Shown here one piece after another: positions 12,572 through 33,464 of a stretch of DNA of 64,000 nucleotides. The stretch lies in contig JBAYJK010000003.1 in assembly GCA_041665145.1 (NCBI GenBank), forward strand, positions 69,177 through 133,176, in the 5' to 3' direction. Made by a program: the position numbers and the translations under genes. The notes below the pieces were generated by a model. That model saw only the letters and a list, made by a program, of their open reading frames with translations. It was not told the origin of the DNA and made no database searches. The stretch comes from Patescibacteria group bacterium. GTDB lineage: Bacteria > Patescibacteriota > Microgenomatia > UBA1406. How positions within the stretch are numbered: position 1 is the first letter of the stretch; every line of letters starts with the position of its first letter.

Positions 12572-12588
12572 TTTCAGCTTAATTTCAG
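12572..12588 (+). promoter_or_regulatory. Direct repeat TTTCAG-N5-TTTCAG, candidate operator of the adjacent OmpR-family regulator
   Basis: Two identical hexamers with 11-bp spacing, 9 nt upstream of TATAAT (12598-12603). That box is 7 nt from the ATG at 12611. Confidence 0.55.
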
Positions 12589-12610
12589 TCAAATTGGTAT
12601 AATTGACCCA

Positions 12611-13285
12611 ATGAGAATTCTGGTCGTTGAGGATGAACATCGGATTGCAAATTCAATCAAAACCGGCCTTCAGCAGGAAAAGTACGCTGTCGATATCTGT
12701 TATTCGGGTGATGAAGGCTTTGACTTGGCGTCTACTGAAGAATATGATGCGATTATTCTGGATTTGATGCTTCCCGGAATGGACGGTCTGGCAATTTGCA
12801 GGAACCTTCGAAAATCCCGCATACACACTCCAATTCTTATGTTGACGGCTAAAGGTCAAATTCAAGATAAGGTGACCGGACTGGATGCCGGTGCTGATGA
12901 TTATTTAACAAAACCCTTTTCATTTGAAGAGCTGTTGGCAAGACTGCGGGCGCTTGTTCGACGTCCTCGCGTAGCGCTTGAGACGGTACTATCCGTAGGC
13001 ACGCTGAAGCTTGATCCTAAAGCTTATACGGTTACTAGAAGCGGAAACGCTCTCAGCCTCTCAAGTAAAGAGTTTTCGCTCCTGGAGTACCTCGTGCGAA
13101 ACCAAGGCAAAATTCTGACGAAAGATCAGATTATCAGTCATGTCTGGGATTACGATGCGGATGTTCTACCCAACACCGTTGAAGTTTATATTCGTAATCT
13201 CCGAATTAAAATAGACGAACCGTTTAAAAAAGAAAAACCGCTCATTCGTACCGTGCGGGGTTTCGGTTACCAGATAGAAGAATAA
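12611..13285 (+). CDS. OmpR/PhoB-family response regulator
   Basis: Receiver domain (MRILVVEDE, DAIILDLMLPGMDG, LTAK) plus a winged-helix C-terminus (TVRGFGY). Confidence 0.95.
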   Translation: MRILVVEDEHRIANSIKTGLQQEKYAVDICYSGDEGFDLASTEEYDAIILDLMLPGMDGLAICRNLRKSRIHTPILMLTAKGQIQDKVTGLDAGADDYLTKPFSFEELLARLRALVRRPRVALETVLSVGTLKLDPKAYTVTRSGNALSLSSKEFSLLEYLVRNQGKILTKDQIISHVWDYDADVLPNTVEVYIRNLRIKIDEPFKKEKPLIRTVRGFGYQIEE

Positions 13286-13287
13286 TT

Positions 13288-14310
13288 ATGTTTCATGGAG
13301 CTCGATTAAAACTAACTGCCTGGTATCTGCTTATTGTCATGCTGGTAAGCATGGCATTCAGTGCTGTGATTTACCGGGGGCTCATGAGTGAGGTAGAACG
13401 ATTTGCCCACACACAGGAGCTGCGGATCATGCGGGGTTTCCCGAATGATATTCGTGTTCCGTATCTTTTAATTGATAAAGATTTTATCAATGAAACACGC
13501 AGAAGACTTATTCTGACTCTTGTTTTTATTAACGGATCCATTTTTTTTGTATCGGGAGCACTCGGTTACTTATTATCGGGAAAAACGCTTGAGCCGATCA
13601 AAGAAATGGTGGATGAGCAGAACAGGTTTATAACTGATGCCTCACATGAATTGCGTACTCCGCTTACTGCCCTTAAAAGTTCGATGGAAGTTTATCTGAG
13701 AGGAAAAACTCCTACCCTCACTGAAGCAAAAACGCTTGTAGTTGACAGCATAGCTGATGTCAATAAGCTTCAATCCCTCTCCGAGAGTTTACTTCAACTG
13801 ACACAGTACCAAAATAAGCCACAAGGTATAGTTTTTAAGAACGTATCGGTAGCTGAAATTGTTGAAGCCGCAAAAAAACAGATAAAAGCCGTTGCTGCGA
13901 AACGGGGGCTCACTATTAAAGATGATATTGCTGATATTTCGGTGAACGGTAATTCCGATAGCCTGACTGAATTACTGGTGATACTTTTGGACAACGCAGT
14001 GAAATACAGTTTGCCGGATAGTAAAACTATCCATATTGCGGCAAAGCGACTCGATGGAAATGCAGAAATCTCAGTTACGGATTCGGGAATAGGTATAAGT
14101 AAAAAAGATATTCCGCGAATTTTCGACAGGTTCTACCGTGCAGATGCAGCACGCACACGATCGAATTTCGGAGGCTATGGGCTTGGATTGGCAATTGCGC
14201 AAAAGATAGTCGCTCTGCACAACGGAACGATACGTGTACAGAGTGCTGAAGGAAACGGCAGTAAATTTACCATAACGCTTCCCGCTGCCGTCAGACAATA
14301 TAGGAGCTAA
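13288..14310 (+). CDS. sensor histidine kinase
   Basis: Two TM segments, H-box SHELRTPLT, N box LLDNAVKY, G boxes DSGIGI and GYGLGLAI. Confidence 0.95.
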   Translation: MFHGARLKLTAWYLLIVMLVSMAFSAVIYRGLMSEVERFAHTQELRIMRGFPNDIRVPYLLIDKDFINETRRRLILTLVFINGSIFFVSGALGYLLSGKTLEPIKEMVDEQNRFITDASHELRTPLTALKSSMEVYLRGKTPTLTEAKTLVVDSIADVNKLQSLSESLLQLTQYQNKPQGIVFKNVSVAEIVEAAKKQIKAVAAKRGLTIKDDIADISVNGNSDSLTELLVILLDNAVKYSLPDSKTIHIAAKRLDGNAEISVTDSGIGISKKDIPRIFDRFYRADAARTRSNFGGYGLGLAIAQKIVALHNGTIRVQSAEGNGSKFTITLPAAVRQYRS

Positions 14311-15031
14311 ACCCTTTAGTGAAAATTGCCATTCCGTTTTTATCAATCAGGTAACCTTCAAATCCCGGAAGCTTTTCTATAAACGCAATGCCTTTATACC
14401 CCATGGCAACTGCGGCAGTTGAAAAGCGGTCAGCTTCATACGCATTCGGACCGATGACTGAAAGACTGACAATATCCGTAATCTTTGTCTTCGGCTGTAA
14501 CGGGTTATAAATCTGCTGGTCGCGTATATTTGTCCGTGAAGTTGCCAGAGCACAATCACGTAAAGTGATCACTTTTACCACTTGTTCGTGTTTAAACGGG
14601 TGCCGTATACCGACGTGCCACGGTTTTCCTTTATCGTTTTTACCATGTGCCTCTATATCACTGCCTGCTTCTATGTAAAAGTTTTCAAACCCATCCTCCG
14701 TGAGTAGTATTGAAGCATTGTGAATTGCCCAGCCCTTCACCATACCCGAAGGGTCTAGTTTCTTTCCATTTTGAATATTAAAATAACCCCCCGTTTCGTC
14801 TTTGGTATCTTCACATAAGGCAAGAACAGTACGCATGTCGTCGCTGTAAACCTCCTCCTCCAACTCTCCCCTGTTAATCTGTGACAGCTCGCTGTCTTTC
14901 TCATCGGGATCGAATGTATGATGAACGTAGCTGAAATAATCGAAGATTTTGTCGAAAGTTTTCTGAGTTACTTCGGCGTCATTAACTTCGACAGTAACGG
15001 GTATGTCCACTATAATTCGTGTTTCTTTCAT
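14291..15031 (-). CDS. apbE: FAD:protein FMN transferase (ApbE family)
   Basis: LDPSGMVKGWAI and ALATSRTN resemble the ApbE motifs (DxgGiaKGyA, vATSG). Confidence 0.7.
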   Translation of the reverse strand: MKETRIIVDIPVTVEVNDAEVTQKTFDKIFDYFSYVHHTFDPDEKDSELSQINRGELEEEVYSDDMRTVLALCEDTKDETGGYFNIQNGKKLDPSGMVKGWAIHNASILLTEDGFENFYIEAGSDIEAHGKNDKGKPWHVGIRHPFKHEQVVKVITLRDCALATSRTNIRDQQIYNPLQPKTKITDIVSLSVIGPNAYEADRFSTAAVAMGYKGIAFIEKLPGFEGYLIDKNGMAIFTKGFSSYIV

Positions 15032-15034
15032 GGC

Positions 15035-16297
15035 TTATTTATTCAACACGCCCACGTTTGTGCCGGCCGTTTTAAAAGCACTTACCAGCATTTCGACGTC
15101 GGCAACCGTATGAGAAGCCGAAAGCTGAACACGAAGTTCGTCCCGTCCGGCGGTGACTACCGGGTAACTCAAATTGGTTACCAGGAATTGTCGCTCAAAC
15201 AGATTGTCAGCAAGTGCTCTGCATTTTGCGGCGTCACCTATTAAAACAGGTTGTATCGGGTGAACGGACTCTGCGGCAAATGTGAAGCCTGCCTTTTTCA
15301 TCGCTGTTTTAAACAATTGTGTCATTTCCTGTAAGTGCGCAATCATTTTCTTCCCTGCCTTGCTATCTACAAGATTAATAGATGCCAAAGCCGCGCCGGC
15401 AGTGCCCGGAGAAATTGAATTTGAGTAAATATATGTTGCAGCAGATTCCCTCAAGTAATCGATGACTTTTTTTGAAGCAACAACGTATCCTCCATCGGCT
15501 CCGAACCCTTTGCCAAGTGTTCCGACCAACACGTCTGCTTGTGCAGTGCATAATTCTTCCGTGCCGCGACCGGTAGGACCAAATGCCGCAATTCCATGAC
15601 AATCGTCAACAACCAACAGTACACCGTGTTCGTACTGCTCATCATATTTATCAACAACTTCCCGGATTTTCTTCAGGTCCTGATATTCACCGAGCATGCT
15701 GAATACTCCGTCGGTAACCACGAGGGCTCGCTTGACTGTATTCTTTCTGGCTTCCAATATTTCCTCCAAATGCGCGGCGTCCAAATGTCTGAAAACTTCC
15801 CGATGGTCTTTGGGAAGGTTTGCAACACGAATGCCGTCAATGATGCTGCGGTGGTTTAAGGCGTCCGATACAACAAGCACATCCGGGGTAACGGCGGTAT
15901 CTTTCCGTTGTCCCTGAATTAAACAGAATAATACGGCCATATTGGTAGCAAACGCAGACGAAAAAACCATAGCGGCTTCACGGTTGTGAAATTTTGCTAA
16001 AGCGTTTTCGAGATCTACGTGCACTTTTAATGATCCGGAAATAAACCGCACTGCTCCCGGCCCTGAACCGTACGTTTCCGAAGCTTCATGCTCTGCAGCA
16101 ATAAGGTCCGGGTGATGACGAAGTCCGAGGTAGTCATTGGAATTAAAAATTTTTACTTCCTTGCCACCCATGAGTGCATAGGAATGAGGATACTCCGTAA
16201 ATCCATCAATAACTCTTTCATGACGTTTGGATGTTTTCACGCTGTCGATGGTTGCGACTTCCTTGTCAAGAAGTGCAAAAAAGTTAGTTTTACTCAT
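15035..16297 (-). CDS. kbl: 2-amino-3-ketobutyrate CoA ligase (glycine C-acetyltransferase), PLP-dependent
   Basis: AONS/KBL family pattern with DDCHG and GTLGKGFG (PLP lysine). It overlaps the upstream tdh-like gene by 4 nt. Confidence 0.8.
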   Translation of the reverse strand: MSKTNFFALLDKEVATIDSVKTSKRHERVIDGFTEYPHSYALMGGKEVKIFNSNDYLGLRHHPDLIAAEHEASETYGSGPGAVRFISGSLKVHVDLENALAKFHNREAAMVFSSAFATNMAVLFCLIQGQRKDTAVTPDVLVVSDALNHRSIIDGIRVANLPKDHREVFRHLDAAHLEEILEARKNTVKRALVVTDGVFSMLGEYQDLKKIREVVDKYDEQYEHGVLLVVDDCHGIAAFGPTGRGTEELCTAQADVLVGTLGKGFGADGGYVVASKKVIDYLRESAATYIYSNSISPGTAGAALASINLVDSKAGKKMIAHLQEMTQLFKTAMKKAGFTFAAESVHPIQPVLIGDAAKCRALADNLFERQFLVTNLSYPVVTAGRDELRVQLSASHTVADVEMLVSAFKTAGTNVGVLNK

Positions 16298-17238
16298 GCT
16301 TTTTGAATTTTAATTTTTATATTTTTAAACATATCAATTGCCATTTCGTGGAGTCCGTAGGTATGTTTCCACCCCCAGTCTTTACGCGCCTGACTATCAT
16401 CGATTTTTGTCGGCCAACTGTCCGCAATTGCCTGGTGAAAGTCGGGCTTATACTCACAGGTGAAACCCGGTACGAGTTTTTTGATCTCTGCTACAAGCTC
16501 CTCTGGTGCAAAGCTGAACGCGGCAAAATTATAGCTCGTGCGTACGGTCAAATTTCTGCTGTCTGCATTCATGAGATCTATGGTTCCTTTAATGGCATCC
16601 TCCATATACATCATGGGTAGCGAGGTTCCTTCTTTGAGGAAGCACTCAAAATGTTTGGTTTTTATGGCATCATAAAATATCTGAATGGCGTATTCTGTGG
16701 TGCCGGCTCCCGGAGCGGCTTTGTACCCCAATAAGCCAGGGTATCGCACACTTCGCACATCAACACCATATTTGAGATTGTAGTACTGACATAACAATTC
16801 TCCTGAAACCTTATTCACGCCGTACATGGTGGTCGGTTCAAGCACCGTGTGCTGCGGTGTGTTGTGCTTTGGAGTTGTCGTTCCGAACGCGGCAATGGAG
16901 CTTGGCCAAAATATCTTGAATTTACGGTCTATGGCAAGATCAAGTACATGTTTCAAACTTAAATAATTCACTTCCCACGCTAGCTGCGGATTCTTTTCAC
17001 TGCCGCCGGACAATATTCCTGCAAGATGAAAAACGGTGTCAATCTGATGATCATCGATAATTTTTGCGAGACCCTCCTTGTCTGTGACACTTCCTTTTAC
17101 GAGGATTCCGTCAAACCCCTCGTGGACTACCGAGTGACCGAGACAGATCACATTTTCCCGACCGTATTGTTTTTGGAGTGCTTCCACCAAGTCGGTACCG
17201 ACGAGGCCGAATGCTCCGGTGACAAGTATTTTTTTCAT
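16294..17238 (-). CDS. tdh: L-threonine 3-dehydrogenase, extended-SDR (epimerase-like) type
   Basis: Rossmann motif VTGAFGLVGTDL, catalytic YGVNKVSGE (YxxxK), and operon context with kbl. The start is moved to MKKILVTG because TACAAT lies 6 nt upstream. Confidence 0.7.
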   Translation of the reverse strand: MKKILVTGAFGLVGTDLVEALQKQYGRENVICLGHSVVHEGFDGILVKGSVTDKEGLAKIIDDHQIDTVFHLAGILSGGSEKNPQLAWEVNYLSLKHVLDLAIDRKFKIFWPSSIAAFGTTTPKHNTPQHTVLEPTTMYGVNKVSGELLCQYYNLKYGVDVRSVRYPGLLGYKAAPGAGTTEYAIQIFYDAIKTKHFECFLKEGTSLPMMYMEDAIKGTIDLMNADSRNLTVRTSYNFAAFSFAPEELVAEIKKLVPGFTCEYKPDFHQAIADSWPTKIDDSQARKDWGWKHTYGLHEMAIDMFKNIKIKIQKA

Positions 17239-17256
17239 ATTTCTATTGTACAACTT

Positions 17257-18258
17257 TTAACCGTTTGCCAGTTGACCACATGCGGCTTTTATGTCATCGC
17301 CCATGGTCACCCGGACCGTATGTTGCAACCCGTATTTGCTCAAAATGTTTGAGAATTGACGTACAGCTTGAGGAGTTGAGCGTTGATACGAATTTCCTGC
17401 GACCGGGTTATACGGAATTAGATTTACATGTGTCAGATGGGTTCCGAGCAAATTAACCAATTCTTCAGCATGGTGCGGTGTATCATTCACGGAATCGATC
17501 AAAATGTACTCGAAGCTTACCCGTTTGTTTGTCCGCTGGGCATACTCATGGAATACGTCCAGCAGTTCCGGTAAGGGGAATTTTAATGCGACAGGCATAA
17601 TTTTTTCCCGGAGTTTTTGATTCGGCGCATGCAGGCTTAAAGCGAGACGCCCTTTATATTCCGTCTTTAAAAGCTCTTTAAGATTCGGTGTAATTCCCGA
17701 CGTAGAAATTGTTATGCGCCGCATGCTGAGAGCCAATTTTTCCGGGTCGCAGAATACACGGATAGCTTCCATAACGTTTTGTAAATTTATAAGCGGCTCA
17801 CCCATTCCCATAAATACGATGTTGGTTACTTTTTCTTTGTCTTTTTTAAGAAATCGTTCGAAATACAAAACCTGATCAACAATTTCCCGTCCAGTTAGTT
17901 GCGCTTTAAAACCCATTTTTCCGGTAGCACAGAATGTACATCCGATCGGGCATCCGATCATACAACTTACACAAACGGTGTTTCTGCCGTCCCTGTGTCT
18001 CATAAGTACGGCTTCCAAAAATTGACCGTCTGAAACCCGGCTCAATAACACTTTCACCGTTTTTTTATCTGCTGACTCCAGCTCTTTAACCTTGTTTAGT
18101 GTGGAAAACGGAATTGTGTGAATTAATTTTTCACGCAATGCTTTCGGCCAAGTAGTTACTTCATCAATTGACTCGGCAAAATCAACATAAAAGGCCTGGT
18201 GAAATTGAGAGGCACGGTAAGCGGGTAGGTTATTATCCGTGATAAATTTTCCGATCAT
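17257..18258 (-). CDS. rlmN: 23S rRNA/tRNA (adenine-C2)-methyltransferase, radical SAM
   Basis: CVSCMIGCPIGCTFCATG, GMGEPL, and a C-terminal conserved Cys (DIKAACGQL). The start is set at 18258 because TATAAT lies 6 nt upstream. Confidence 0.9.
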   Translation of the reverse strand: MIGKFITDNNLPAYRASQFHQAFYVDFAESIDEVTTWPKALREKLIHTIPFSTLNKVKELESADKKTVKVLLSRVSDGQFLEAVLMRHRDGRNTVCVSCMIGCPIGCTFCATGKMGFKAQLTGREIVDQVLYFERFLKKDKEKVTNIVFMGMGEPLINLQNVMEAIRVFCDPEKLALSMRRITISTSGITPNLKELLKTEYKGRLALSLHAPNQKLREKIMPVALKFPLPELLDVFHEYAQRTNKRVSFEYILIDSVNDTPHHAEELVNLLGTHLTHVNLIPYNPVAGNSYQRSTPQAVRQFSNILSKYGLQHTVRVTMGDDIKAACGQLANG

Positions 18259-18274
18259 AGGTAAATTATACCAA

Positions 18275-19456
18275 TTAGAATATGTACAGCTCATCAGTTG
18301 CACGGGTAACTGCGGTATACAGCCAGCGTTTCCAATCCGATTCAGTCATCTTTTTAAATCGTTCTTCGAAAAGTACGACGCGCTTTGCCTGACTTCCCTG
18401 CGCTTTGTGCACAGTAAGTGCGTACCCGAAATCAAACAAATCCCCGATTGAAGTTTCTTTGCGATTTTCCGTAAAATTAAAAGGTGTGAGTGCGTCAAAT
18501 TGCGGTTTATACAGAAGACCGGAATAATTTTTATCTTCCCCATCCATCCGGATATCCGCCTCGTACCACATGATGTCTTTACTTTCTATCGTCATGATTG
18601 TTCCGAGCATGCCGTTAAAAATCTGATGTTGGTGATTGTTGCGCAAACAGATAACCCTATCCCCCGCTGAAGGTTCCGGATCTTCAAAACCGAGAGCTGT
18701 CCGAATAAATCGATTTAAGCGACGACGGGTATTGTTGTAACCGCACAATACCAATGTCTCGCTTGTATAGTTAGTCAAGAGTTCTGTCAAGAAATCACCC
18801 GCCTCCGTATCTTCCTTGGCATGTTTAATAACATATTGAGAATATCGTCCCACATCAATTACCCCTTTTGTTCGGGCGGCTATTGAAAGATCAATTATTG
18901 GGTCTCCTGCGGACTGGCGGTGAATCTGTTCCAAAAGAAGATTCGGTTTTTGCATCAGATTAAAATTCCCCGCAATCGGCGGGAGTTGTCCGTGGTCTCC
19001 GACGACGATCATCGGAATTTTGTACGAAACCAAATGATTCCAAATGGTGCTGTCTACCATGGATGCCTCATCGATAATAATAAGTTCTCGATCTATTTTT
19101 TCCTTTTTCTTCCACCCGGTAATTTCCTCCCGTTCGTTGATGACCGGTGTGTAAATAAGCGAGTGAATAGTGCCGATAGTATCTTGCGGGTAAAATGACT
19201 CGCTTTCCTTTATTTTAGTTTGCAATACTCGCGCAGCCTTACCGGTGTAGCTCGCAAAGCCCACCTTCAGTTTCGGATTTTTTTCATGAAGTGTATTTCT
19301 TAAAATAGAAATAAGTGTGGTTTTCCCCGTTCCTGCATAACCGCCGAGCGTTATGAATTGGCGGGTTAAACGCTCTTTTTCAAACCACGCGATGAGTGCG
19401 GAAAGTGCGTTCTCCTGGTCTTTCGATACCAGAAGTTTCTGAGCAGGAGTTGTCAT
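18275..19456 (-). CDS. SF1 RecD/Dda-like DNA helicase
   Basis: Walker A GGYAGTGKTT, IIIDEASM, VGDHGQLPPI, ALTVHKAQGSQ and YTAVTRA. Confidence 0.85.
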   Translation of the reverse strand: MTTPAQKLLVSKDQENALSALIAWFEKERLTRQFITLGGYAGTGKTTLISILRNTLHEKNPKLKVGFASYTGKAARVLQTKIKESESFYPQDTIGTIHSLIYTPVINEREEITGWKKKEKIDRELIIIDEASMVDSTIWNHLVSYKIPMIVVGDHGQLPPIAGNFNLMQKPNLLLEQIHRQSAGDPIIDLSIAARTKGVIDVGRYSQYVIKHAKEDTEAGDFLTELLTNYTSETLVLCGYNNTRRRLNRFIRTALGFEDPEPSAGDRVICLRNNHQHQIFNGMLGTIMTIESKDIMWYEADIRMDGEDKNYSGLLYKPQFDALTPFNFTENRKETSIGDLFDFGYALTVHKAQGSQAKRVVLFEERFKKMTESDWKRWLYTAVTRATDELYIF

Positions 19457-19541
19457 GGACGTAGTCTAGCAAATTATCTGACACATTAGTAAATTAATAT
19501 AGGATATTCATCCTAGTAAGTAGAGGAATCAGTCACCTCCT

Positions 19542-19560
19542 GGCAACTGCCGCAGTTGCC
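19542..19560 (-). terminator. hairpin GGCAACTG-CCG-CAGTTGCC abutting the stop of the DUF2079 gene
   Basis: An 8-bp perfect stem directly after the stop codon, but with no clear T-run. Confidence 0.35.
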
Positions 19561-21039
19561 TCAGGGGGTAATGAAATCTTTTCTTTTGAAGAGGTAGAAT
19601 TTGCCGATGTTACTTACCAGCTCATGCTCAGGGGAAATTGACATGGCTGCCACAATGTCCACATCTATCGGCTGATAGTTTCCCACAATTCTTTCCTCGG
19701 TAAGCACGGCCACAAAATCCGCTGAACTTGTCGCGTCAGGCATGGTGTAAGCGGTGAGCCGGTGAGTAAGATGTGGGCGCACATTACTGGACGCTGTAAT
19801 AGACGCCGATTGCGGAATAGTTTGTAAAACTTTTTCGAAAGCAATGTCATCTGCGTCCGGACGGAACACCCGTTGCCAGGTAGATGGAGTTGAAGGTAAG
19901 GGGCTATGGTGATAGTTTACCCGCACGGCTCCTACAACAGTAAGGAATAGAAACAAATAGAATAAAATATTTCGAATTGCAGATTGTTTAACTAACCTAC
20001 TCAGTATCTTTCGGACTATAAAAACTCCGAATATGGCAGCGATAACTAACGCAGGCGTTACGCCGCTGTCGTAGTGAAAAAAGGTACTGCGCATCTGAGC
20101 ATGTGTGCTGATGATATTAATAATAAGCTCCGGTAAAGCCAAAATAAGAAACGGAAAGCCCACAAGCGGAAGGAAGATAAACGGCTTCAGCAAATTCACA
20201 TAGTATGTCCACACATCAGGAGCTTTTAGAAAGCTGTCCAATAACCGATTGGAAGTGCTGGTGAATATGTCTTTCCCTGAATCGGAAAAGTTGTACCAGG
20301 AAAAAGCCCAATGAGCGTTGTTCGGGCTGAAATGAGGAATTACGATGAACACCGTTACATAAAACCACAGCGCGCCGGCGACAACCGTCAATGCTCCTAT
20401 TTTTTTGTATTGCGAAAAAACTGTTAAATACAGCCCGATCATGACAATGAACAGGGATATTTCCTCTTTGGTTATGAGGGCTAAAAAGACGAATACAGTA
20501 AACCATGTCCACCTTCGTGAATACGCAAAGTAGAAAACAGAAATAAGTAACGGAATTGCCAAAGAAACTGCGTGAAAATCATACATATTCGTCCATTGCA
20601 TTCCCGGATTCAATAAATAAAGTATGACAATTACGACCGCCGGAATTTTTTGCTTTAACACTTTTTGTGCCAAAAGATACGTCGGAATCGCTCCCAGCGC
20701 CAGAATCACCGACTGGGTTATGAGCAACATTCGTACGTTATTCCAGATAAGGTATATCGGTGACAGTAGCGCAAGCATTAAGTCCGCATGAATGGCAAAG
20801 CGTGAAATTACTCCGGAGCCACTCGTCAAACTAAAAAATCTACCGTTCAGGGTGCTCCATACTGTTTGATCCATGTTGGCCAGGTCGTAGTTGGAATTGA
20901 AAGATTCGTGCCGCAAAATAGTGTATTTCGAAAGGACAAGGGCATAGGCAACTATGAGTATTCCCACAACGATGATGTCCCAGTTCTTTTTCAGAAGCGT
21001 CAGAAAACCGTGCAAGGTAAGCGAGTTATTTTTTTTCAT
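19561..21039 (-). CDS. DUF2079-family polytopic membrane protein (putative glycosyl/arabinosyl-transferase-like)
   Basis: 492 aa with many TM segments. The N-terminal motif FNSNYDLANMDQTVWSTLNG is typical of DUF2079. Confidence 0.75.
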   Translation of the reverse strand: MKKNNSLTLHGFLTLLKKNWDIIVVGILIVAYALVLSKYTILRHESFNSNYDLANMDQTVWSTLNGRFFSLTSGSGVISRFAIHADLMLALLSPIYLIWNNVRMLLITQSVILALGAIPTYLLAQKVLKQKIPAVVIVILYLLNPGMQWTNMYDFHAVSLAIPLLISVFYFAYSRRWTWFTVFVFLALITKEEISLFIVMIGLYLTVFSQYKKIGALTVVAGALWFYVTVFIVIPHFSPNNAHWAFSWYNFSDSGKDIFTSTSNRLLDSFLKAPDVWTYYVNLLKPFIFLPLVGFPFLILALPELIINIISTHAQMRSTFFHYDSGVTPALVIAAIFGVFIVRKILSRLVKQSAIRNILFYLFLFLTVVGAVRVNYHHSPLPSTPSTWQRVFRPDADDIAFEKVLQTIPQSASITASSNVRPHLTHRLTAYTMPDATSSADFVAVLTEERIVGNYQPIDVDIVAAMSISPEHELVSNIGKFYLFKRKDFITP

Positions 21040-22416: not shown

Positions 22417-22422
22417 TTGCTG

Positions 22423-23672: not shown

Positions 23673-23710
23673 GAGATTAGTTTAGCAGATTTAAACACCC
23701 GAGTATATAT

Positions 23711-23741: not shown

Positions 23742-23745
23742 TCAC

Positions 23746-24153
23746 ATGGATATTTCAGAAAACTTGAGAAGGCATGGGTGCAGAGTTACGAAACCTCGTT
23801 TGGAACTATTGAAGGTACTTGCTGACTTCCCACTGACTGTGCAGGAAATTTACGTAAGACTAGAAAAACGAAACAAACACATAGATCTTGCATCTGTTTA
23901 CCGTTCTCTTGAGCTTTTTGCCGATATGGGAATAGTTAACACTATAGACCTTGGAGAAGACAAAAAACGGTATGAATTGGTTGGTAATTCACATCACCAC
24001 CACGTGGTTTGCACTGAATGCAAGTCTATTCAAGATGTTGCTATGGATGAGCAACAGTTACTTGCGAGTGTAAAAATAAAGTCGAAGTTTAAGATAACTT
24101 CGCACAGTCTGGAATTTTTTGGTTTGTGTGAAAATTGTCAACACTCCAATTAA
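23746..24153 (+). CDS. zur: Fur-family metalloregulator, probably Zur
   Basis: Winged HTH, HHHHVVC-x2-C...CENC. It sits directly upstream of znuABC. The ATG at 23746 is preferred over the TTG at 23719, which lies inside the operator. Confidence 0.8.
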   Translation: MDISENLRRHGCRVTKPRLELLKVLADFPLTVQEIYVRLEKRNKHIDLASVYRSLELFADMGIVNTIDLGEDKKRYELVGNSHHHHVVCTECKSIQDVAMDEQQLLASVKIKSKFKITSHSLEFFGLCENCQHSN

Positions 24154-24169
24154 TTGTTTAATCGAATAA

Positions 24170-25812: not shown

Positions 25813-26615
25813 TGTTGGATATATTTCAGTACAGCTTTGTACTTCGCGGGTTTGAAGCGGGAATTATTGTTGCCATTATTGCACCGCTTATCGGAATATT
25901 TCTTGTCCTCAGAAGGTACTCTCTGATCGCAGATACGCTTGCGCATGTTTCGCTCGCCGGCATTGCCGTGGGGCTGCTTTTGAAAATTAATCCCGTGGTA
26001 ACCGCACTCGTCTCATCAGTATTCTCATCATTGATTATAGAACGTCTGCGTATCAGCAAACGAGTCTATGGTGAATCCGCGCTTGCCATTTTTCTTTCCG
26101 GAAGTTTAGCTGTTGCGGTTATTCTGATCAGTCTTGCGAATGGATTCAGTAGTAACATTATGAACTACCTCTTTGGCTCAATTGTGACAGTTACGCAATC
26201 CGATATATATATTATCGCGGGGTTCGGAGCGCTCGTAGTTGCTCTGATTTTTGCATTTTACAAGGAACTTGTTTTTGTCAGCTTTGACGAGGAAGCTGCT
26301 CAAGTTGCCGGCATACCGACAAGATTCATCAATTCTCTGCTTATTGTATTGGCCGCGTTGACAGTTTCTTTAGCAATTCCCATTATCGGGGTTTTACTTA
26401 TATCGGCACTGATGGTTATTCCTGTAGTCAGCGCACTGCAGTTTAAGAAAAGTTTTATCGCAACCATTTTTATTGCAGATGCTATTTCAATTTTTTCGGT
26501 GGTAGCCGGAATAATTCTGTCGTTCTATCTTAACTTGTCTACGGGGGGAACAGTAGTTTTGATAGCTATTGCCATTTTCATTCTTTCCCTTCTCAAAAAT
26601 CAGAAGAGAGGGTAA
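25812..26615 (+). CDS. znuB: zinc ABC transporter permease
   Basis: ABC-3 family polytopic permease in operon context. Confidence 0.85.
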   Translation: MLDIFQYSFVLRGFEAGIIVAIIAPLIGIFLVLRRYSLIADTLAHVSLAGIAVGLLLKINPVVTALVSSVFSSLIIERLRISKRVYGESALAIFLSGSLAVAVILISLANGFSSNIMNYLFGSIVTVTQSDIYIIAGFGALVVALIFAFYKELVFVSFDEEAAQVAGIPTRFINSLLIVLAALTVSLAIPIIGVLLISALMVIPVVSALQFKKSFIATIFIADAISIFSVVAGIILSFYLNLSTGGTVVLIAIAIFILSLLKNQKRG

Positions 26616-27129
26616 TCCAATATCGGCCGGTAGCGGGTTTATTGGGGTCTGACTGGATCGCGTTTTCAAGCATGCCGCCGTTTGCTTCGATAACTTTTTT
26701 CGAAGGTGTGTTCTCTACCGAACAAGTAACAAGCACTTTCTGCAACCCGATCTCTTTCGCTTTTTTCAATGCAAGTTCCAAAAGCTTCTTCCCCAACCCT
26801 TTTCCACGCATTGAAGGACGGATATCGTAACCAACATGACCGCCTTCACGCAATAAATAATCCGTGAGCTCATGACGAATGGCCACTCTGCCGATAATCT
26901 TTTCACCATCTACAAGCCAGAATGTTGATTGCGGAACGCGATCCGGCGGGAGATTCTCTCCCCGTGACTCTTTAAGAAGATGAGTTACATATACTTCAAA
27001 ATCTTTTTCAAGATCTGCTACTTTCAGCTCATAGATATCTCTCCGGTAAGGTGATTCAACGGCTTGATATTCCTTTACGGCATCAATAAACGACTGTTTA
27101 TATCGTACGTTTGGTTCTACGAGTTCCAT
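26593..27129 (-). CDS. GNAT N-acetyltransferase
   Basis: Acetyl-CoA motif RGKGLGKKLLELALKKAKEIG. Confidence 0.85.
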   Translation of the reverse strand: MELVEPNVRYKQSFIDAVKEYQAVESPYRRDIYELKVADLEKDFEVYVTHLLKESRGENLPPDRVPQSTFWLVDGEKIIGRVAIRHELTDYLLREGGHVGYDIRPSMRGKGLGKKLLELALKKAKEIGLQKVLVTCSVENTPSKKVIEANGGMLENAIQSDPNKPATGRYWITLSSDF

Positions 27130-27136
27130 GTGAGAA

Positions 27137-27469
27137 TTATACCACTAAGGGATCAAGGTCTTCCTGTGCCGGACCCTTAATTACCTTACCTTCTTTGGAA
27201 AACTTAGATCCGTGGCAGGGACAAACCCAATTTTTGTCTTTACTGCTCCAGTCGACAACACATCCTAAGTGTGGGCATACGGGTGAAAGCATAACATTCT
27301 CTTTCTCACTTTTCTTATACACAGCAACTTTTTTTCCATTCTGTTGAACAACAGCTCCCTCACCTTGCTTAAGGTCAGCAATAGTCTTGTCTGTTTTTCC
27401 GAATCTGCCTTTTATAAAATTGCCGGGAAAGTTCAAACCTTGCTTAAGAATGTTGGAAATATTTGTCAT
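27137..27469 (-). CDS. Rieske [2Fe-2S] domain protein
   Basis: CPHLGC...CPCHGSKF. Confidence 0.9.
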   Translation of the reverse strand: MTNISNILKQGLNFPGNFIKGRFGKTDKTIADLKQGEGAVVQQNGKKVAVYKKSEKENVMLSPVCPHLGCVVDWSSKDKNWVCPCHGSKFSKEGKVIKGPAQEDLDPLVV

Positions 27470-27542
27470 GTTGCAATTATAGTCTCTTTTTATGTTACAA
27501 GTTCACGTTTGATTTATCGACTTCAATATCCTATAATATTGT

Positions 27543-28175
27543 ATGCCAAAAGAGGTTAATTACCGAGAAGTGAAAGCAGAGAAACTGACGCCTTTATTTA
27601 AAGAAATAGAAATTGGGCATGGTCAGATACTTCCTCCACATTGCTGGGTTGAGTCTTCAGATTTCTACTACTGTGCTCTGCTTGTCGGAACAAATGGAGC
27701 CGGAGAAGTCCGTGTGGCGCACTCTAGCCCGAATGTAGAGCTGTATGATATTATGGCTTTCAGACATTTTACGTTCGGTTTCCCTCCAAACGTATTTCGG
27801 GAGCACCTGCCACAAATCTATCGGACTTTTGCACATATTGCCAAGTGCGATGCACAAGTACCGGGAATAGTTTACGCCTATGCGCGCCACGGAAGGGGTT
27901 ATCTGTGGAACGATCTTGAACTGGCCCGGGATTTAGTTTTTGAGTATCCGGAAAACACTGACTTATATACGGAACTAGGGTGGAACTTAGATTTGTTACG
28001 AAGTGCTCGTTTTACTCATGAGCCAATTGATGGTTCGTGTAAAGTCCCTTTTCATGCTGTTGTAGGCCTACAACAGTTTGGCGAAATGAGGAGATTGATT
28101 ACGAGCGTAACACAACCGGGAAAGCAATTGTACAGACATGTGATGGACTTTAGCTCTGTGATTACGAAAAATTAA
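27543..28175 (+). CDS. hypothetical protein (210 aa)
   Basis: ORF with TATAAT 5 nt upstream of the ATG. No motif recognised. Confidence 0.55.
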   Translation: MPKEVNYREVKAEKLTPLFKEIEIGHGQILPPHCWVESSDFYYCALLVGTNGAGEVRVAHSSPNVELYDIMAFRHFTFGFPPNVFREHLPQIYRTFAHIAKCDAQVPGIVYAYARHGRGYLWNDLELARDLVFEYPENTDLYTELGWNLDLLRSARFTHEPIDGSCKVPFHAVVGLQQFGEMRRLITSVTQPGKQLYRHVMDFSSVITKN

Positions 28176-30840
28176 CCAGTCTCATACGCTCGTTTATTGC
28201 TTTGAAAATATCGGACAGCAGTACGTAAATTAAACCTGCTGTCACGGCAATTATGATCTCAATAATTCCAATAGGGGCAGTCTGAAAGGCTTTGTTAAGT
28301 GGCGTGTAGATAACCAGAAGCGTAATTCCCAGAGAAACAGCTGATGCTAGAAACAAGTATTTATTTACGAACAGCGACCGTGTCAAAACAGGAAACCTGA
28401 ATGACCGGTAGATGAAAGCACCAGCAATTTCAAGGACTATTAGTGTAAATAAAAGTGTAGTGCGTGAAACGTCCGCTGAGTTTCCGAATATATTGAAGGA
28501 GATGTAGTATGCCGCAAGACTCATTGCACCCATGGTCATGCCACTTATTACTAATGAGGCATAGAGCGATCTTGTCAGGATATTGGCGTTACGTCGGGGC
28601 CGGTCACTCATGACATCTTTTGAAGAGTGATTCACGGCAAGCGTAATTGCCGGCAAATCGTCGGTTACCAAATTCATGAACAATATGTGGAGAGATAGAA
28701 GAATTGGTGTCTGCCAGCCTAAAAGCGGTGAAAATATAACGCTAAACAACAGTATCATCAGCTCTGCGTAATTACACGACAACTGGTATGTTACAAATTT
28801 GCGCAGATTATTGAAAATAGTCCTTCCTTCCCGGATAGCTTCGACAATTGTGACAAAATTGTCGTCTTTCAAAGTAAGATCCGCAACAGATCGGGAAACA
28901 TCGGTTCCCGACTTCCCCATCGCGACTCCAATGTTGGCTTCTTTAAGTGCCGGTGCGTCGTTTACCCCGTCACCTGTCATCGTAACCACTTCACCGAGCT
29001 GTTTAAGCGTATTGACGATGCGTAATTTATGCTCGGGACGTACGCGCGCAAAAATAACCGCTTCCTGTAATGCAACCGCCAGTTCGCTGTCGCTCATTGC
29101 ATCAAGTTCGTCTCCCTCGTAGGCTTTGCCGATGAGCCCTATTTGAGTGGCTATTGCGACCGCGGTAGTTTTATGATCGCCGGTAATCATTTTCACTCGA
29201 ATTCCGGCGGCAGTACACACCTCGATAGTCTCCTTCACTCCTTCACGGGGGGGATCTTCAATCCCGACGATACCAAGAAACGTGAGCGGTGCTTTTTCGT
29301 GAGTAGGTTTCAATTCACAATAGGCAAGCGCCAAAGTTCTGTAAGAGTTATCAGATAATTCAGTGGTTTGTGCAAGCAGGGACTCCCGCTCTTTACTGTC
29401 GAGAGCAATCCGTTCATTGCCTTTAAATTGGTATCTTGAGAGCTTTACAATTACTTCCGGAGCGCCTTTGGCGTAAAGGTACGTCCGGCCGTGTATCTCG
29501 ACTTTAGTGAACATGATCTTGGTCTCCGGTGTGAACGGTATTTCTTCGAGTATTCTATGTTGCAGGTCTTCCCGATAAATTTTTGCCTTGGCGGCAAGAA
29601 TCAACAGTGCTACTTCTGTATGTGACCCGAGTGCTTTGTATTCAGTCGGGGTCTCTGTTTTCTGTATGCTCGCACTGTTACATACAACGCAACATCTCAG
29701 AAGTTCTGACAATTGTCTGTTACCCTCAATGGACACGGGCTGATTATTTAACGTGAACTCTCCCTGGTTGGAATAGCCGACTCCCGAAACATCAAGGACC
29801 TTTCCGTCCAGAACGATTTTCTTTACCGTCATTTCCCCTTTTGTGAGCGTGCCCGTTTTGTCCGTGCAGATTACGGTTGTCTCACCGAGAGTTTCGATTA
29901 TGGACATGCGGTTGACGATTGCATTCTTCTTTGCCATCCGAGTCGTCCCGGCGGCAAGCGAAGTCATAAGCACTACCGGAAGGCCTTCCGGGAAGGCGGA
30001 AACGGCAAGGGCGATGGCAAGCACTAATATGTGCGTAAGGGTAGCAGAAGAAAAGTCTTTGGCTTGGAAAAGAAGTACGACCGAAATAAAAATCGAAATA
30101 GAGATTGCCACCACAACCATAATACCGGCGATTGCGTTAACTTTTTTCTGTAACGGAAGCTCTTTGACGGTTTCGGTGATGAGCGTTGATATTTGGCCGA
30201 ATTTTGTGTTCATTCCGGTATGGGTCACCACAAACGTACATTTCCCATTCACAACATAACTTCCCATAAACAGTATGCTTTCATTTTTTGATGTACCGGA
30301 TGCGCTTTTTAACGCACGCTTAGTCTGTTCGGCAGACTCCCCGGTGAGTATGGATTCGTCAACGCGCAAAGCGGTTTCATGAACAATCTTACCGTCAGCC
30401 GGTACGCGATCACCGCTTCTGATTACAACAACATCTCCCGGTACAACTGCTCTGGTTTCGATTTGCTGTTCTCTTCCGTCGCGAATCACCGTACAGGTAA
30501 GTACCATCATATTTTTCAAGGCCTCTATAGCAACATCCGCCTTATACTCCTGGACAAAAGAGATGGTTACGATGAGTGACAGCACCAACATGATTACAAT
30601 TCCGGTTACCAGTTCGCCTACAAGAAGCGATACGACGGCTGCAAACAACAAAAGGTACACAATAAAATTGCTCTTGAGTGTTTTAACAAATCTGACAAGC
30701 GGAGAGGTGTGGTGGCTTTCCGCTATTTCGTTATTTCCCCATTTTTCAAGTCGCTCTTGTGCCTCAAACGTAGTAAGACCGGTTATAAGAGTATCCACAG
30801 TATCAGTATAAAGATCTAACAGAACTTTGACAACCTGCAA
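28162..30840 (-). CDS. P2-type cation-transporting ATPase (Ca2+/Mg2+-ATPase-like)
   Basis: TGES, CTDKTGTLT, MITGD, TGDGVNDAPAL, and 10-TM topology. The apparent start codon is TTG. Confidence 0.9.
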   Translation of the reverse strand: MQVVKVLLDLYTDTVDTLITGLTTFEAQERLEKWGNNEIAESHHTSPLVRFVKTLKSNFIVYLLLFAAVVSLLVGELVTGIVIMLVLSLIVTISFVQEYKADVAIEALKNMMVLTCTVIRDGREQQIETRAVVPGDVVVIRSGDRVPADGKIVHETALRVDESILTGESAEQTKRALKSASGTSKNESILFMGSYVVNGKCTFVVTHTGMNTKFGQISTLITETVKELPLQKKVNAIAGIMVVVAISISIFISVVLLFQAKDFSSATLTHILVLAIALAVSAFPEGLPVVLMTSLAAGTTRMAKKNAIVNRMSIIETLGETTVICTDKTGTLTKGEMTVKKIVLDGKVLDVSGVGYSNQGEFTLNNQPVSIEGNRQLSELLRCCVVCNSASIQKTETPTEYKALGSHTEVALLILAAKAKIYREDLQHRILEEIPFTPETKIMFTKVEIHGRTYLYAKGAPEVIVKLSRYQFKGNERIALDSKERESLLAQTTELSDNSYRTLALAYCELKPTHEKAPLTFLGIVGIEDPPREGVKETIEVCTAAGIRVKMITGDHKTTAVAIATQIGLIGKAYEGDELDAMSDSELAVALQEAVIFARVRPEHKLRIVNTLKQLGEVVTMTGDGVNDAPALKEANIGVAMGKSGTDVSRSVADLTLKDDNFVTIVEAIREGRTIFNNLRKFVTYQLSCNYAELMILLFSVIFSPLLGWQTPILLSLHILFMNLVTDDLPAITLAVNHSSKDVMSDRPRRNANILTRSLYASLVISGMTMGAMSLAAYYISFNIFGNSADVSRTTLLFTLIVLEIAGAFIYRSFRFPVLTRSLFVNKYLFLASAVSLGITLLVIYTPLNKAFQTAPIGIIEIIIAVTAGLIYVLLSDIFKAINERMRLVNFS

Positions 30841-30857
30841 ACTGCTATAATTTACTC

Positions 30858-31244
30858 ATGGTGCTAGAAAAAGAAGATGGTGCTGATAGGCTTGGTGTCT
30901 CTCCGATAGACCAGCTTATATCTATGGCAGAACGTTTGGGTGTCGGCGAAACAATGGAGATGAGAACCGTGCGCGTAGAGGCATTGGCTGCTCTGGATTT
31001 GGTTACTCTGAAAACTCTGATTGTGAGATATCATGAATTGGGCGAATTGATTGTGAATGCCAAACCGGATAATCCGAAAGCTCAGATCGGTTTATCTCTT
31101 TTAATCACTGCCATCTATTTTTCCAAAGGAATGCGTGCCGATTACAAGGCAGGAATTGAAGATGCATTACTGTATGCAGAGCATATTGGTGAAACCGAGC
31201 TTGTGGAGTCTCTTACAAAGTTAATGCATCCTGCGCGGCCTTAA
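30858..31244 (+). CDS. hypothetical protein (128 aa)
   Basis: ORF with TATAAT (30846-30851) 6 nt upstream of the ATG. Confidence 0.5.
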   Translation: MVLEKEDGADRLGVSPIDQLISMAERLGVGETMEMRTVRVEALAALDLVTLKTLIVRYHELGELIVNAKPDNPKAQIGLSLLITAIYFSKGMRADYKAGIEDALLYAEHIGETELVESLTKLMHPARP

Positions 31245-32295
31245 GATGTGTATTGTAAAATAAGGCAAGTTCAAACTCTCTTCGTGCTGCTTCGGGATTT
31301 CCCTGTTTTACAAAAACTTTTCCGCGTAACATATAGAGCTCGGAAAAAGCACGGTTACCATTCTTCAAAACCTGTTCAGTCAAATCTAAAACTTTACTAT
31401 AATTACCCGCTACATAGTAGGACTGTATGGGCTCAATTTGATACCATAATGTCCGGAACGGAAGGTAGGCTTGCACGGTTTCAAACTCTTTAATGGAGCG
31501 CTGATAGTCTCCGGTGTGAAAAAGCGCTACGGAGAGATTGAATCTGGCGTTGTTGTCCCTCGGATCTGCAGTGAGTTCCTGCTCTGCGTTTTTGACGGCA
31601 TCCTGCCACGCCTTATTCTTGTCGGTGTGTTCTTTGAGAATTTCTTTGAGAAGTTCTATTTTGTTTTTCGGAATGAGCACGAGATATTCATAATTGAATT
31701 TCTTCCACAGTTCACTAAACTCCTGAAATGTGTAAGTAAGACCGGCGCCTTGCAGTGAATCATCTTGTATGAATACACCCGTTGTTTCGTCAAAACCCTT
31801 TACAACGCGATAATGGCCTATATCGGTGTCCATTGTTAATAAGGTACGAGTAATTACCGGTAGCTCCTGTGCTATAAACTGTTTCAATATCTCCGGATTT
31901 CCCATCGGGCGGTGGTACGGTATGAGCCCATATTCGCGGGCCTTCTCTCCTAGCTCTTCGAGAGTAACCGACTTATCGTCGTTGTCTCCACTCTGGACTT
32001 GGTACGGGCGGAGAGTAGCTGCTAACTCCTCTTGGCTCGCCGAAATAGCATAGAATTTGAGCGCCATGGATAATGCCGCCGGCCCACAGTTATTGAACGA
32101 CTGAAAAATATGGTAATCCGTAGCAAGAACTTTGCGTATCGGACCCGGTGTTGGCGTAGCAGGTTGTGGCGATTCACTTCGGGTGACTGAATCTGCAGGA
32201 TTTTCATAAACACGTTCCCGCATTACCATACGGAAACCAATTACAAGTAACGTGATGAGAATCACAAACATATTTATTTTGATAAAATTTCTCAT
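31213..32295 (-). CDS. membrane-anchored C39-like cysteine peptidase domain + TPR repeats
   Basis: N-terminal TM, FQSFNNCGPAALSMAL (papain-like C39_2 catalytic Cys context), and C-terminal TPR-like repeats. Confidence 0.6.
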   Translation of the reverse strand: MRNFIKINMFVILITLLVIGFRMVMRERVYENPADSVTRSESPQPATPTPGPIRKVLATDYHIFQSFNNCGPAALSMALKFYAISASQEELAATLRPYQVQSGDNDDKSVTLEELGEKAREYGLIPYHRPMGNPEILKQFIAQELPVITRTLLTMDTDIGHYRVVKGFDETTGVFIQDDSLQGAGLTYTFQEFSELWKKFNYEYLVLIPKNKIELLKEILKEHTDKNKAWQDAVKNAEQELTADPRDNNARFNLSVALFHTGDYQRSIKEFETVQAYLPFRTLWYQIEPIQSYYVAGNYSKVLDLTEQVLKNGNRAFSELYMLRGKVFVKQGNPEAARREFELALFYNTHLKAAQDALTL

Positions 32296-32330
32296 AAAAG
32301 TCGGTTAGTAATTTATTACATTATATAGCA

Positions 32331-33401
32331 ATGCCTTCAGTTCAAAACAAAAAGATGAAAATTGCGGCGGGTGCAATACTAGTCTGCGCATCCCTGATTC
32401 TTGCACTTAGTCTTGTCAGGTCAACTGCGTTCAGAAATACCGGCAGTCCAGTGAGTCGGGTGGCAAAAGAATCACAGATTGAGCCTACACCATTTCCTTT
32501 TCAGGAAATGACAATTCCCTATCTCCGTTCGCGGGAGTACGAGAGTTCTCTTGGGGAGTTACGGCGCGTTACCCAGAACACGGATTATACTTCGTACATT
32601 ACCGACTATGACTCGGACGGTTTGCTGATTCAAGCATACATAACAATTCCAACGGGTGAGAAACCACGTAAGGGCTGGCCGGCTGTTGTGTTCGTACATG
32701 GGTATATTCCTCCCCAAAACTACAGCACTTCCGATAGCTATAGTTCGTATGTAGATTATTTGGCCAGGAATAAATACGTGGTTTTTAAAATTGACTTACG
32801 CGGGCACGGAACCTCACACGGCGAACCTATGGGCGCATATTATTCGTCAGATTATATTATAGATACCCTCAATGCCCGCGCTGCTCTGCAGAGATCTGAC
32901 TTAATCGACCCTCAGCGCATCGGGTTATACGGACACTCTATGGCAGGGAATGTCGTTACCCGAGCAATGGCTGCACGACCCGATATTCCCGCTGTCGCCG
33001 TTTGGGCGGGTGCAGTGTATACCTATGCAGATTTTTCAGAGTTCAGTATCAACGACAATTCATATCGCCCACCGTCGGACGATTCTCCCGGACGGAGACG
33101 AAGAAACGAAATGCTTTCGATGTACGGTGAGTTCAACGCTGAGAGTTTCTTTTGGAAGCTCGTGCCGATGACTAATTTTCTGAAGGACATGCAAGGCGCA
33201 ATTCAGCTGAGCCATTGCGTGGATGACACGGTTGTCAGCGTAGATTACAGCAGGAATCTGAGCGCGCTACTTGATAAGGCCTCGATAGTGCACGAGAGTA
33301 TCGAATACCCGAACGGTGGACACAACTTCACCGGAAAAACTTTTAACGTTGCAATGGACAGAACTATTGCTTTTTTTGATACATACCTTAAGTCTCGCTA
33401 A
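32331..33401 (+). CDS. membrane-anchored alpha/beta hydrolase (S9 prolyl-oligopeptidase/DLH-like), paralog 1
   Basis: N-terminal TM, VFVHGY, nucleophile elbow GHSMAG, and C-terminal GGHNF. Confidence 0.7.
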   Translation: MPSVQNKKMKIAAGAILVCASLILALSLVRSTAFRNTGSPVSRVAKESQIEPTPFPFQEMTIPYLRSREYESSLGELRRVTQNTDYTSYITDYDSDGLLIQAYITIPTGEKPRKGWPAVVFVHGYIPPQNYSTSDSYSSYVDYLARNKYVVFKIDLRGHGTSHGEPMGAYYSSDYIIDTLNARAALQRSDLIDPQRIGLYGHSMAGNVVTRAMAARPDIPAVAVWAGAVYTYADFSEFSINDNSYRPPSDDSPGRRRRNEMLSMYGEFNAESFFWKLVPMTNFLKDMQGAIQLSHCVDDTVVSVDYSRNLSALLDKASIVHESIEYPNGGHNFTGKTFNVAMDRTIAFFDTYLKSR

Positions 33402-33447
33402 TACTCGCTGTGCCATAACAATGTTTCAGTTGTGATATGCGTCACGA

Positions 33448-33464
33448 TTTCAGGAGATTTTCAG
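33448..33464 (+). promoter_or_regulatory. Second TTTCAG-N5-TTTCAG direct repeat (same box as at 12572)
   Basis: TTTCAGgagatTTTCAG lies 10 nt upstream of TATATA (33475-33480), which is 6 nt from the ATG at 33487. A third TTTCAG is at 33424-33429. Confidence 0.5.

Follow-up and report, generated by a model that had tools for sequence, protein, structure and literature searches.

The 64,000-nucleotide (nt) stretch of a Patescibacteria group bacterium analyzed here (contig JBAYJK010000003.1, forward-strand positions 69,177 to 133,176; referred to below as the window) carries a two-component operon starting at 12611 and a gene at 33487 for a membrane-anchored alpha/beta-hydrolase (hydrolase B), and the promoters of both contain the same direct repeat, TTTCAG-N5-TTTCAG. 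We consider it probable that the response regulator encoded at 12611 has its operator in this repeat, from which it would activate its own operon together with hydrolase B. The elements on which this proposal is built, all on the plus strand, are as follows (aa, amino acids).

12572-12588 (+): Box 1, TTTCAGcttaaTTTCAG, an exact match to the repeat, in the promoter of the regulator/kinase operon.
12595..12603 (+): extended -10 element TGgTATAAT of the regulator operon, from reading the sequence.
12611..13285 (+): OmpR/PhoB-family response regulator, 224 aa (Pfam Response_reg, 110 bits, and Trans_reg_C, 91 bits, both over the cut-off).
13288..14310 (+): cognate histidine kinase, 340 aa (Pfam HisKA, 40.5 bits; HATPase_c, 102 bits).
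32331-33401 (+): hydrolase A, an alpha/beta-hydrolase with S9/S33-type matches, upstream of Box 2.
33424-33429 (+): a third TTTCAG, 24 nt upstream of Box 2 rather than 22, off the 11-nt phase.
33448-33464 (+): Box 2, TTTCAGgagatTTTCAG, an exact match to the repeat, in the promoter of hydrolase B.
33472..33480 (+): extended -10 element TGtTATATA of hydrolase B, from reading the sequence.
33487..34554 (+): hydrolase B, an alpha/beta-hydrolase of 355 aa (Pfam Peptidase_S9, 72.4 bits versus a cut-off of 22.6).

Boxes 1 and 2 lie just where the first-pass annotation of this DNA had placed them, and they are the only exact matches to TTTCAG-N5-TTTCAG on either strand of the whole window. Both are direct repeats with an 11-nt period, TTTCAGc-N4-TTTCAG in Box 1, which lies at about -38 to -22, and TTTCAGg-N4-TTTCAG in Box 2, which occupies the corresponding promoter position. 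The TATAAT of the regulator operon (12598-12603, preceded by TG at 12595-12596) starts 9 nt past Box 1, and the ATG at 12611 follows it after 7 nt; the TATATA of hydrolase B (33475-33480, with TG at 33472-33473) starts 10 nt past Box 2, and its ATG at 33487 follows after 6 nt, a gap which implies that the hydrolase B transcript is leaderless. The distance from box to -10 element is therefore not identical at the two loci, as had been claimed, but differs by 1 nt. Neither promoter has a -35 consensus, the corresponding positions reading CAGCTT before the regulator gene (17 nt upstream of the -10 element) and AGGAGA before hydrolase B, whereas other promoters in the window do have -35-like hexamers, such as the TTGACA before 30858. 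With a putative operator over the -35 region, no -35 consensus, and a fixed spacing to the -10 element, the arrangement has the layout of a pho-box-type promoter.

Taken at face value, the repeat is a rare sequence, with 0.02 exact matches expected per window a priori. TTTCAG, however, occurs about twice as often as the mean hexamer (35 versus 15.6 occurrences per strand), the 15 hexamer-N5-hexamer repeats in the window match expectation, and in a look-elsewhere test some hexamer-N5-hexamer repeat occurred twice in ~26% of random 64-kb sequences. Because this look-elsewhere effect is large and leaderless promoters with a TATAAT-6-nt-ATG layout are common, the raw coincidence is weak evidence. 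We rejected the raw repeat statistics as proof for the first of these reasons, and we rejected the equal distance from -10 element to ATG as evidence for the second, the TATAAT-6-nt-ATG layout being the genome-wide norm; we therefore sought an independent comparative test.

That test came from orthologs of the regulator, which are found at 63 to 76% identity in 80 other genomes, nearly all of them Microgenomates (Roizman-, Woese-, Ames-, Gottesman-, and Woykebacteria), together with other Patescibacteria. All but one of the 80 orthologous regulator promoters contain (T/C)TCAG-N6-(T/C)TCAG with no more than three mismatches to TTCAG-N6-TTCAG, and in 50 the match is perfect, even though the 80 upstream regions cannot otherwise be aligned to each other. 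The position of the box is likewise constant, with a gap of 9 nt to the TATAAT in 56 of the 80 orthologs; when the window is counted as well, a TATAAT lies 8 to 11 nt past the box in 77 of 81 regulator promoters, mostly with an ATG 6 to 11 nt further on. By this comparison Box 1 is a deeply conserved cis-element of the regulator operon, and its fixed promoter position in 79 of 80 ortholog operons supports the autoregulation that had been suggested for the two-component operon.

We then used 78 sites from other genomes, and none from the window, to build a 22-column weight matrix (minimum score of its training sites, 12.5 bits) with which both strands of the window were scanned. Its information content is restricted to the two half-sites, with the consensus tTTCAGCtnnTTtTCAGc. 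The top match in the window was Box 1 (12573, 21.5 bits) and the second was Box 2 (33449, 20.2 bits), with the third match reaching only 10.7 bits. From the exact score distribution, a score of at least 20.2 bits has a probability of ~1e-7 per position, corresponding to 0.012 matches expected in the window, so that the original argument from improbability, which could not stand on the repeat coincidence, holds when it is put in terms of the independent matrix. Variants with TTAAG in both half-sites are under-scored by this matrix, and the box counts given below are lower bounds.

The regulator belongs to the OmpR/PhoB family by its receiver and Trans_reg_C domains, its adjoining HisKA/HATPase_c kinase, and its predicted operator of direct repeats 11 nt apart. 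Its closest solved relatives are Thermotoga DrrD (1kgs) and then, with E = 1e-49, M. tuberculosis PhoP (3r0j/5ed4). It falls under every NCBIfam cut-off tried (score/cut-off in bits): TIGR01387 (cztR_silR_copR), which is the best-scoring model, 243.2/279.2; TIGR02154 (PhoB), 202.5/296.2; CseB, 173/350; and BaeR, 170/380. The kinase gene begins 3 nt past the regulator stop codon and is not an orphan, as it had been called; it is paired with the regulator and is part of a conserved Microgenomates system. Read by eye, its translation has two hydrophobic segments flanking a loop of ~43 aa, with HisKA ~23 residues past the second segment, and Pfam detected no HAMP or PAS domain in it.

Dimers of OmpR/PhoB-family regulators have as their signature operator an 11-nt direct repeat that overlaps the -35 region, and two lines of sequence variation tie this particular box to the adjacent regulator. 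The choice of T or C immediately 5' of TCAG is concordant between the regulator promoter and the target promoters within a genome (Fisher p = 2e-4), and among the 224 regulator positions the highest mutual information with this choice is found at residues 195 and 196. CTCAG occurs in at least one half-site in 22 of the 25 cases in which these residues are G195-Y196 but in none of 58 in which they are (R/K)-(N/S/K/A) (p = 3e-17 against G-Y). Both residues are inside the recognition helix, PNTVEVYIRNLRIKI (residues 187-201), where, aligned by eye against the PhoB sequence, they presumably correspond to R200 and R201 of PhoB. The repeat consensus of M. tuberculosis PhoP, A-C-(T/G)-(T/G)-(T/G)-Py-A-Pu-C, includes TGTTTCAGC (PMC3413638). 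We take the adjacent regulator as the probable binder because of the 11-nt repeat, the T/C concordance, and the co-variation with residues 195 and 196.

The second target in the window, hydrolase B, has an N-terminal hydrophobic anchor and a GHSMGG serine motif (GxSxG), the positions of the Asp and His having been read by eye. The S9-type catalytic domain is present and the N-terminal beta-propeller of the S9/DPP4 family, which gates the active site, is absent; its matches in the PDB are either to the catalytic domains of DPP4 enzymes only (their residues ~470 to 630 or 720) or to whole small esterases of ~250 aa. Hydrolase B is a predicted member of the regulon: its promoter holds the only other high-scoring site in the window, and orthologs in other genomes are themselves boxed or lie in box-headed operons, both of which support the link from the two-component system to the 33487 hydrolase. 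In several loci an ortholog is directly behind a box (L021/L022/L027, L050, L068, L074/L150, and L155), and in L081, L082, and L164 it is the distal gene of a box-headed exporter operon beside the regulator genes. A hydrolase gene immediately follows the kinase gene in L008 and L131, and in L126 it is divergent from the regulator promoter. By its own box or by operon membership, the hydrolase is thus tied repeatedly to this system, which is the comparative support that the original hypothesis called for.

Hydrolase A lacks a box, as previously noted, no position in the 150 nt before its start at 32331 scoring higher than -11.7 bits with the matrix. The two hydrolases are 36% identical and both types have orthologs in other genomes, from which we conclude that they are old paralogs. 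A-type orthologs (54 to 59% identity) occur in L085, L119, and L155, and in two of these, L085 and L155, a single box precedes both hydrolases, with B ahead of A and only 45 nt and 1 nt, respectively, between the genes. The order in the window is A-B with the box in between, and A has therefore escaped the box. The proposed regulatory subfunctionalization of the duplicated hydrolases is accordingly peculiar to this lineage at most, in which B alone is boxed; as a general account it fails, since the paralogs are ancient and share a box elsewhere, and the loss of box control by A is a lineage-specific rearrangement.

The relatives also indicate what else the box may control. Beyond the regulator promoters themselves, 51 further boxes of at least 17 bits were found in 483 kb near regulator operons, compared with ~0.6 expected, and 46 of these have the start of an open reading frame (ORF) 10 to 130 nt downstream. 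A metagenome scan of 80 hydrolase loci, about half of which were set aside as non-CPR homologs (CPR, candidate phyla radiation, i.e., Patescibacteria) of higher G+C that match only from about residue 57, gave 7 boxes of this strength in the 382 kb of CPR-like loci versus ~0.5 expected. Three families recur downstream of the boxes: an HlyD/CusB-like membrane-fusion adaptor of ~430 aa, seen in 42 cases and usually right past the kinase gene; a protein of ~160 aa (13 cases) whose N terminus is hydrophobic, which matches no Pfam family, and of which no homolog was found in the window; and the B-type hydrolase (9 cases, including that of the window). Occasionally the boxed gene encodes a cupredoxin (L035 and L075) or an Amidase_3 protein (L041/L085, divergent from the regulator gene).

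The fullest arrangement is seen in L081 and L082, which share a core of regulator, kinase, box, adaptor, ATP-binding cassette (ABC) ATPase, MacB_PCD/FtsX permease, hydrolase B, and DUF5666. The run in L082 includes a trypsin-like protease, while L081 has a class A beta-lactamase-like gene and a second hydrolase, and a beta-lactamase-like gene is present in L164. The same exporter-to-hydrolase operon is found in L163 and L164, with hydrolases 75 to 78% identical to that of the window. The exporter operon is preceded by a matrix-scored box in L081, L082, and L164; in L163 we found by eye, at ~1165-1200 before the adaptor gene, an A-for-C variant, TTAAG-N6-TTAAG (TTAAGcattaaTTAAG), which scores <10 bits and lies 9 nt upstream of a TAAAAT-like -10 box, and the same variant occurs in L077. 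An exporter of the MacAB/YknXYZ type is thus a predicted regulon member in relatives and is not present in this window. Judged by its targets, which range from an exporter and proteases to hydrolases, a beta-lactamase-like protein, and a small secreted protein, the regulon looks like an inducible cell envelope defense or detoxification response.

Three further observations concern the organization of these loci. At 1289-1590 of L164, a close relative, a boxed regulator start (a 46-aa ORF) runs into an apparent kinase C terminus, and the boxed adaptor gene follows directly; it looks as if either most of the regulator/kinase operon had been deleted or the assembly were at fault. L100 (Ga0209172_10000106; 57% G+C, probably not CPR) has four in-phase (C/T)TCAG half-sites with 11-nt spacing on the minus strand at 960-1120 and a divergent half-site pair on the plus strand, with another box (8440) ~1.3 kb upstream of a hydrolase homolog, and the box and its regulator family seem from this to reach beyond CPR. 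In the window, an ApbE-family gene (14291-15031, minus strand) convergently overlaps the 3' end of the kinase gene at 14291-14310, and in L163 an ApbE gene (483-1166) lies directly upstream of the adaptor/exporter/hydrolase operon; these ApbE positions hint that an inversion or rearrangement split the kinase from the exporter and hydrolase genes in this genome.

In the mechanism that we propose, the kinase encoded at 13288 would phosphorylate the regulator, which would then bind as a head-to-tail dimer to the half-sites (T/C)TCAG(C), 11 nt apart, at about -38 to -22. Bound there, it would stand in for the missing -35 element and recruit housekeeping RNA polymerase to the leaderless promoter, so that the regulator/kinase operon would stimulate its own expression and the membrane-anchored hydrolase at 33487 would be induced. 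In most Microgenomates the box would additionally head an operon for an HlyD-type adaptor and a MacB-type ABC exporter, the gene for the small secreted protein, and occasionally a cupredoxin or amidase gene; depending on the genome, the exporter operon would bring with it a trypsin-like protease, a class A beta-lactamase-like protein, hydrolase B, and at times a further hydrolase, which in other relatives is of the A type. Activation from an operator in the -35 position is how both PhoB and M. tuberculosis PhoP act. The conservation and position of the box, its gene specificity, and its co-variation with the recognition helix are shown by the sequence comparison; binding, an activating rather than a repressing role, and the signal that the kinase senses are inferred.

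Several observations weigh against this proposal. The statistics for co-variation between box and regulator ignore shared ancestry. A tblastn search (E < 1e-3) found no adaptor homolog in the window, so that the exporter common in relatives is missing here. The closest relative of the hydrolase (79% identity, in L161/L162) is encoded by a gene that stands alone, with no site of >10 bits, and most of the CPR-like hydrolase loci in the metagenome scan lack a nearby box of 14 bits or more, although these contigs are often short or may come from genomes without the system; on these two grounds membership of the hydrolase in the regulon is evolutionarily labile. Finally, the TG-extended -10 elements of both window promoters could allow activator-independent transcription, and a site that overlaps the -35 region could serve as a repressor operator.

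These last two points make repression by occlusion the main alternative to activation. The same regulator would cover the -35 region of promoters that are constitutive by virtue of their extended -10 elements, and the signal would relieve the repression. The span of the box, -38 to -22, is compatible with such a role, and the TGn-extended -10 elements can function without a -35 element. Yet conservation among the orthologous promoters does not extend to the TGn (compare GAGTATAAT and GGCTATAAT), and these promoters also lack a -35 element, as activator-dependent ones would; the fixed 9-nt gap to the -10 element in 56 of 80 is typical of activators that contact polymerase; and the family members established to act from this position, PhoB and M. 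tuberculosis PhoP, are activators. We therefore regard repression as improbable.

The assignment of a site to the regulator encoded next to it is itself inferential, and the box could in principle be read by a different transcription factor or an alternative sigma factor, with the regulator operon merely one of the co-regulated units. We find this very unlikely in view of the 11-nt direct repeat, which is the OmpR/PhoB signature, the housekeeping form (TATAAT) of the -10 box, the co-variation of the box variants with recognition helix residues 195 and 196, and the presence of the box beside this regulator gene in 79 of 80 genomes. Less credible still is that Box 2 is an inactive relic of an ancestral box-exporter-hydrolase order, stranded by rearrangement. 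The distal position of the hydrolase in the exporter operons of L081, L082, L163, and L164 and the boxless state of its closest relative, L161, would suit such a history, but decay should have cost matches, and Box 2 is a perfect repeat whose 20.2 bits are within the functional-looking range (training minimum, 12.5) and which has the right spacing to a well-formed -10 element and the ATG of a leaderless gene. That a common hexamer merely coincided in AT-rich spacers, an idea for which the twofold excess of TTTCAG and the doubling of some repeat in about a quarter of random windows might speak, is effectively refuted by the ortholog conservation (79 of 80 genomes), by the ranks and score statistics of the two boxes in the independent matrix scan, and by the enrichment of boxes, including their recurrence before hydrolase orthologs.

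Activation by the adjacent regulator, the reading that we favor, invites a broader and more tentative one, which we regard as possible but doubtful: that an inducible circuit of envelope defense, built from the box, regulator, and kinase, spans the Microgenomates and reaches some non-CPR lineages, that its specificity has shifted with two residues of the recognition helix, that the kinase may sense through the neighboring MacB-type exporter, and that the circuit has been rewired in this genome, with only one of the two ancient hydrolase paralogs left under its control. In this reading, (R/K)-N regulators would read TTCAG and G-Y regulators would read CTCAG, and the minimal kinase would sense in the manner of the flux-sensing Bce systems. 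If true, this would be among the first cis-regulatory circuits defined for CPR bacteria, and the recognition code (R/K-N versus G-Y) would be both natural and testable.

Gene regulation in CPR bacteria is almost unexplored, and most of these organisms cannot be grown. What the present analysis provides is a concrete operator sequence, conserved in at least 80 genomes, with a putative cognate regulator and a recurring set of exported targets (ABC exporter, proteases, beta-lactamase-like protein, and alpha/beta-hydrolases), which suggests how CPR organisms with small genomes respond to envelope or chemical stress. The mechanism is of textbook OmpR/PhoB design, and the value of the result lies in the annotation of an uncultivated lineage, not in new biology.

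Some further features of promoters in the window were recorded. The third TTTCAG upstream of Box 2 (33424-33429), which had been listed as an addition to the box, is indeed present, but it lies 24 nt away, out of phase, and no third half-site recurs at any offset among 140 related boxes; we rejected it as a third half-site, and it is probably incidental. Between it and Box 2, at 33431-33446 on the plus strand, TGTGAtatgcgTCACg fits a CRP/FNR-type palindrome at 9 of 10 positions; this CRP-like site, TGTGA-N6-TCACg, may be due to chance, with ~0.5 such sites expected per window by our own estimate. Most window genes that have their own promoter have a TATAAT ending 6 to 7 nt before the start codon, without a spacer for a Shine-Dalgarno sequence, and leaderless transcripts seem to be the rule in this genome. 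Examples read from the sequence are the following.

26593-27129 (-): gene with a leaderless promoter.
27137-27469 (-): gene with a leaderless promoter.
30858 (+): gene with a leaderless promoter.
40183-40674 (-): gene with a leaderless promoter.
41252 (+): gene with a leaderless promoter.

A second recurrent promoter-proximal motif, GGATTCGGACT(A/T)(G/T)TGATATAAT, has four matches in the window compared with 0.76 expected. It lies just upstream of the leaderless genes at 42140-42616 (-), 45353-46117 (-), and 61363-61668 (+), and it may mark a further regulon or a promoter cassette that is repeated where the window is lower in GC. Its sites are as follows.

42634-42644 (-): second motif.
46134-46144 (-): second motif.
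61335-61345 (+): second motif.
59990-60000 (+): second motif, with one mismatch.

A literature search found no paper describing this system in CPR, and we compared it with better-known two-component systems. The CopR/CusR/CzcR group (TIGR01387) supplies the best NCBIfam model for the regulator, and its members resemble the present system in having targets that include a CusB/HlyD-like adaptor and, in two genomes here, a cupredoxin; the score, however, is under the subfamily cut-off, and the exporter here is of the MacB-type ABC class rather than of the resistance-nodulation-division (RND) or P-type class. The cop/cus boxes are not known to be TTCAG direct repeats. BceRS-BceAB, HssRS-HrtAB, and YknWXYZ are similar in another way: in the relatives the regulator and kinase adjoin, and are predicted to regulate, an ABC exporter with an FtsX-type permease, and the kinase is of the minimal-sensor kind. 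The permease of the relatives differs in being MacB-type with an HlyD/YknX-like adaptor rather than BceB-type, the ~43-aa kinase loop is longer than that of typical intramembrane-sensing kinases, and the window contains no transporter.

BaeSR and CpxAR of E. coli, CssRS of Bacillus, and MprAB of Mycobacterium are likewise autoregulated OmpR-type systems with exported or membrane protein targets, and the envelope-stress-like targets found here comprise an efflux pump with its adaptor, hydrolases, a serine protease, and a small secreted protein. They differ in that the regulator of the window is below the NCBIfam cut-offs and its regulon is deduced from site positions alone. MprA likewise uses a TCTCAG-like direct repeat and controls an adjacent protease gene, a resemblance that we considered and set aside. 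From PhoB/PhoR of E. coli and PhoP/PhoR of M. tuberculosis the system is set apart by a regulator that is not an ortholog, a regulon without phosphate genes, leaderless promoters, and a kinase without PAS or HAMP domains. It nevertheless shares with both an OmpR/PhoB-family regulator, autoregulation, and an 11-nt direct repeat that takes the place of the -35 element.

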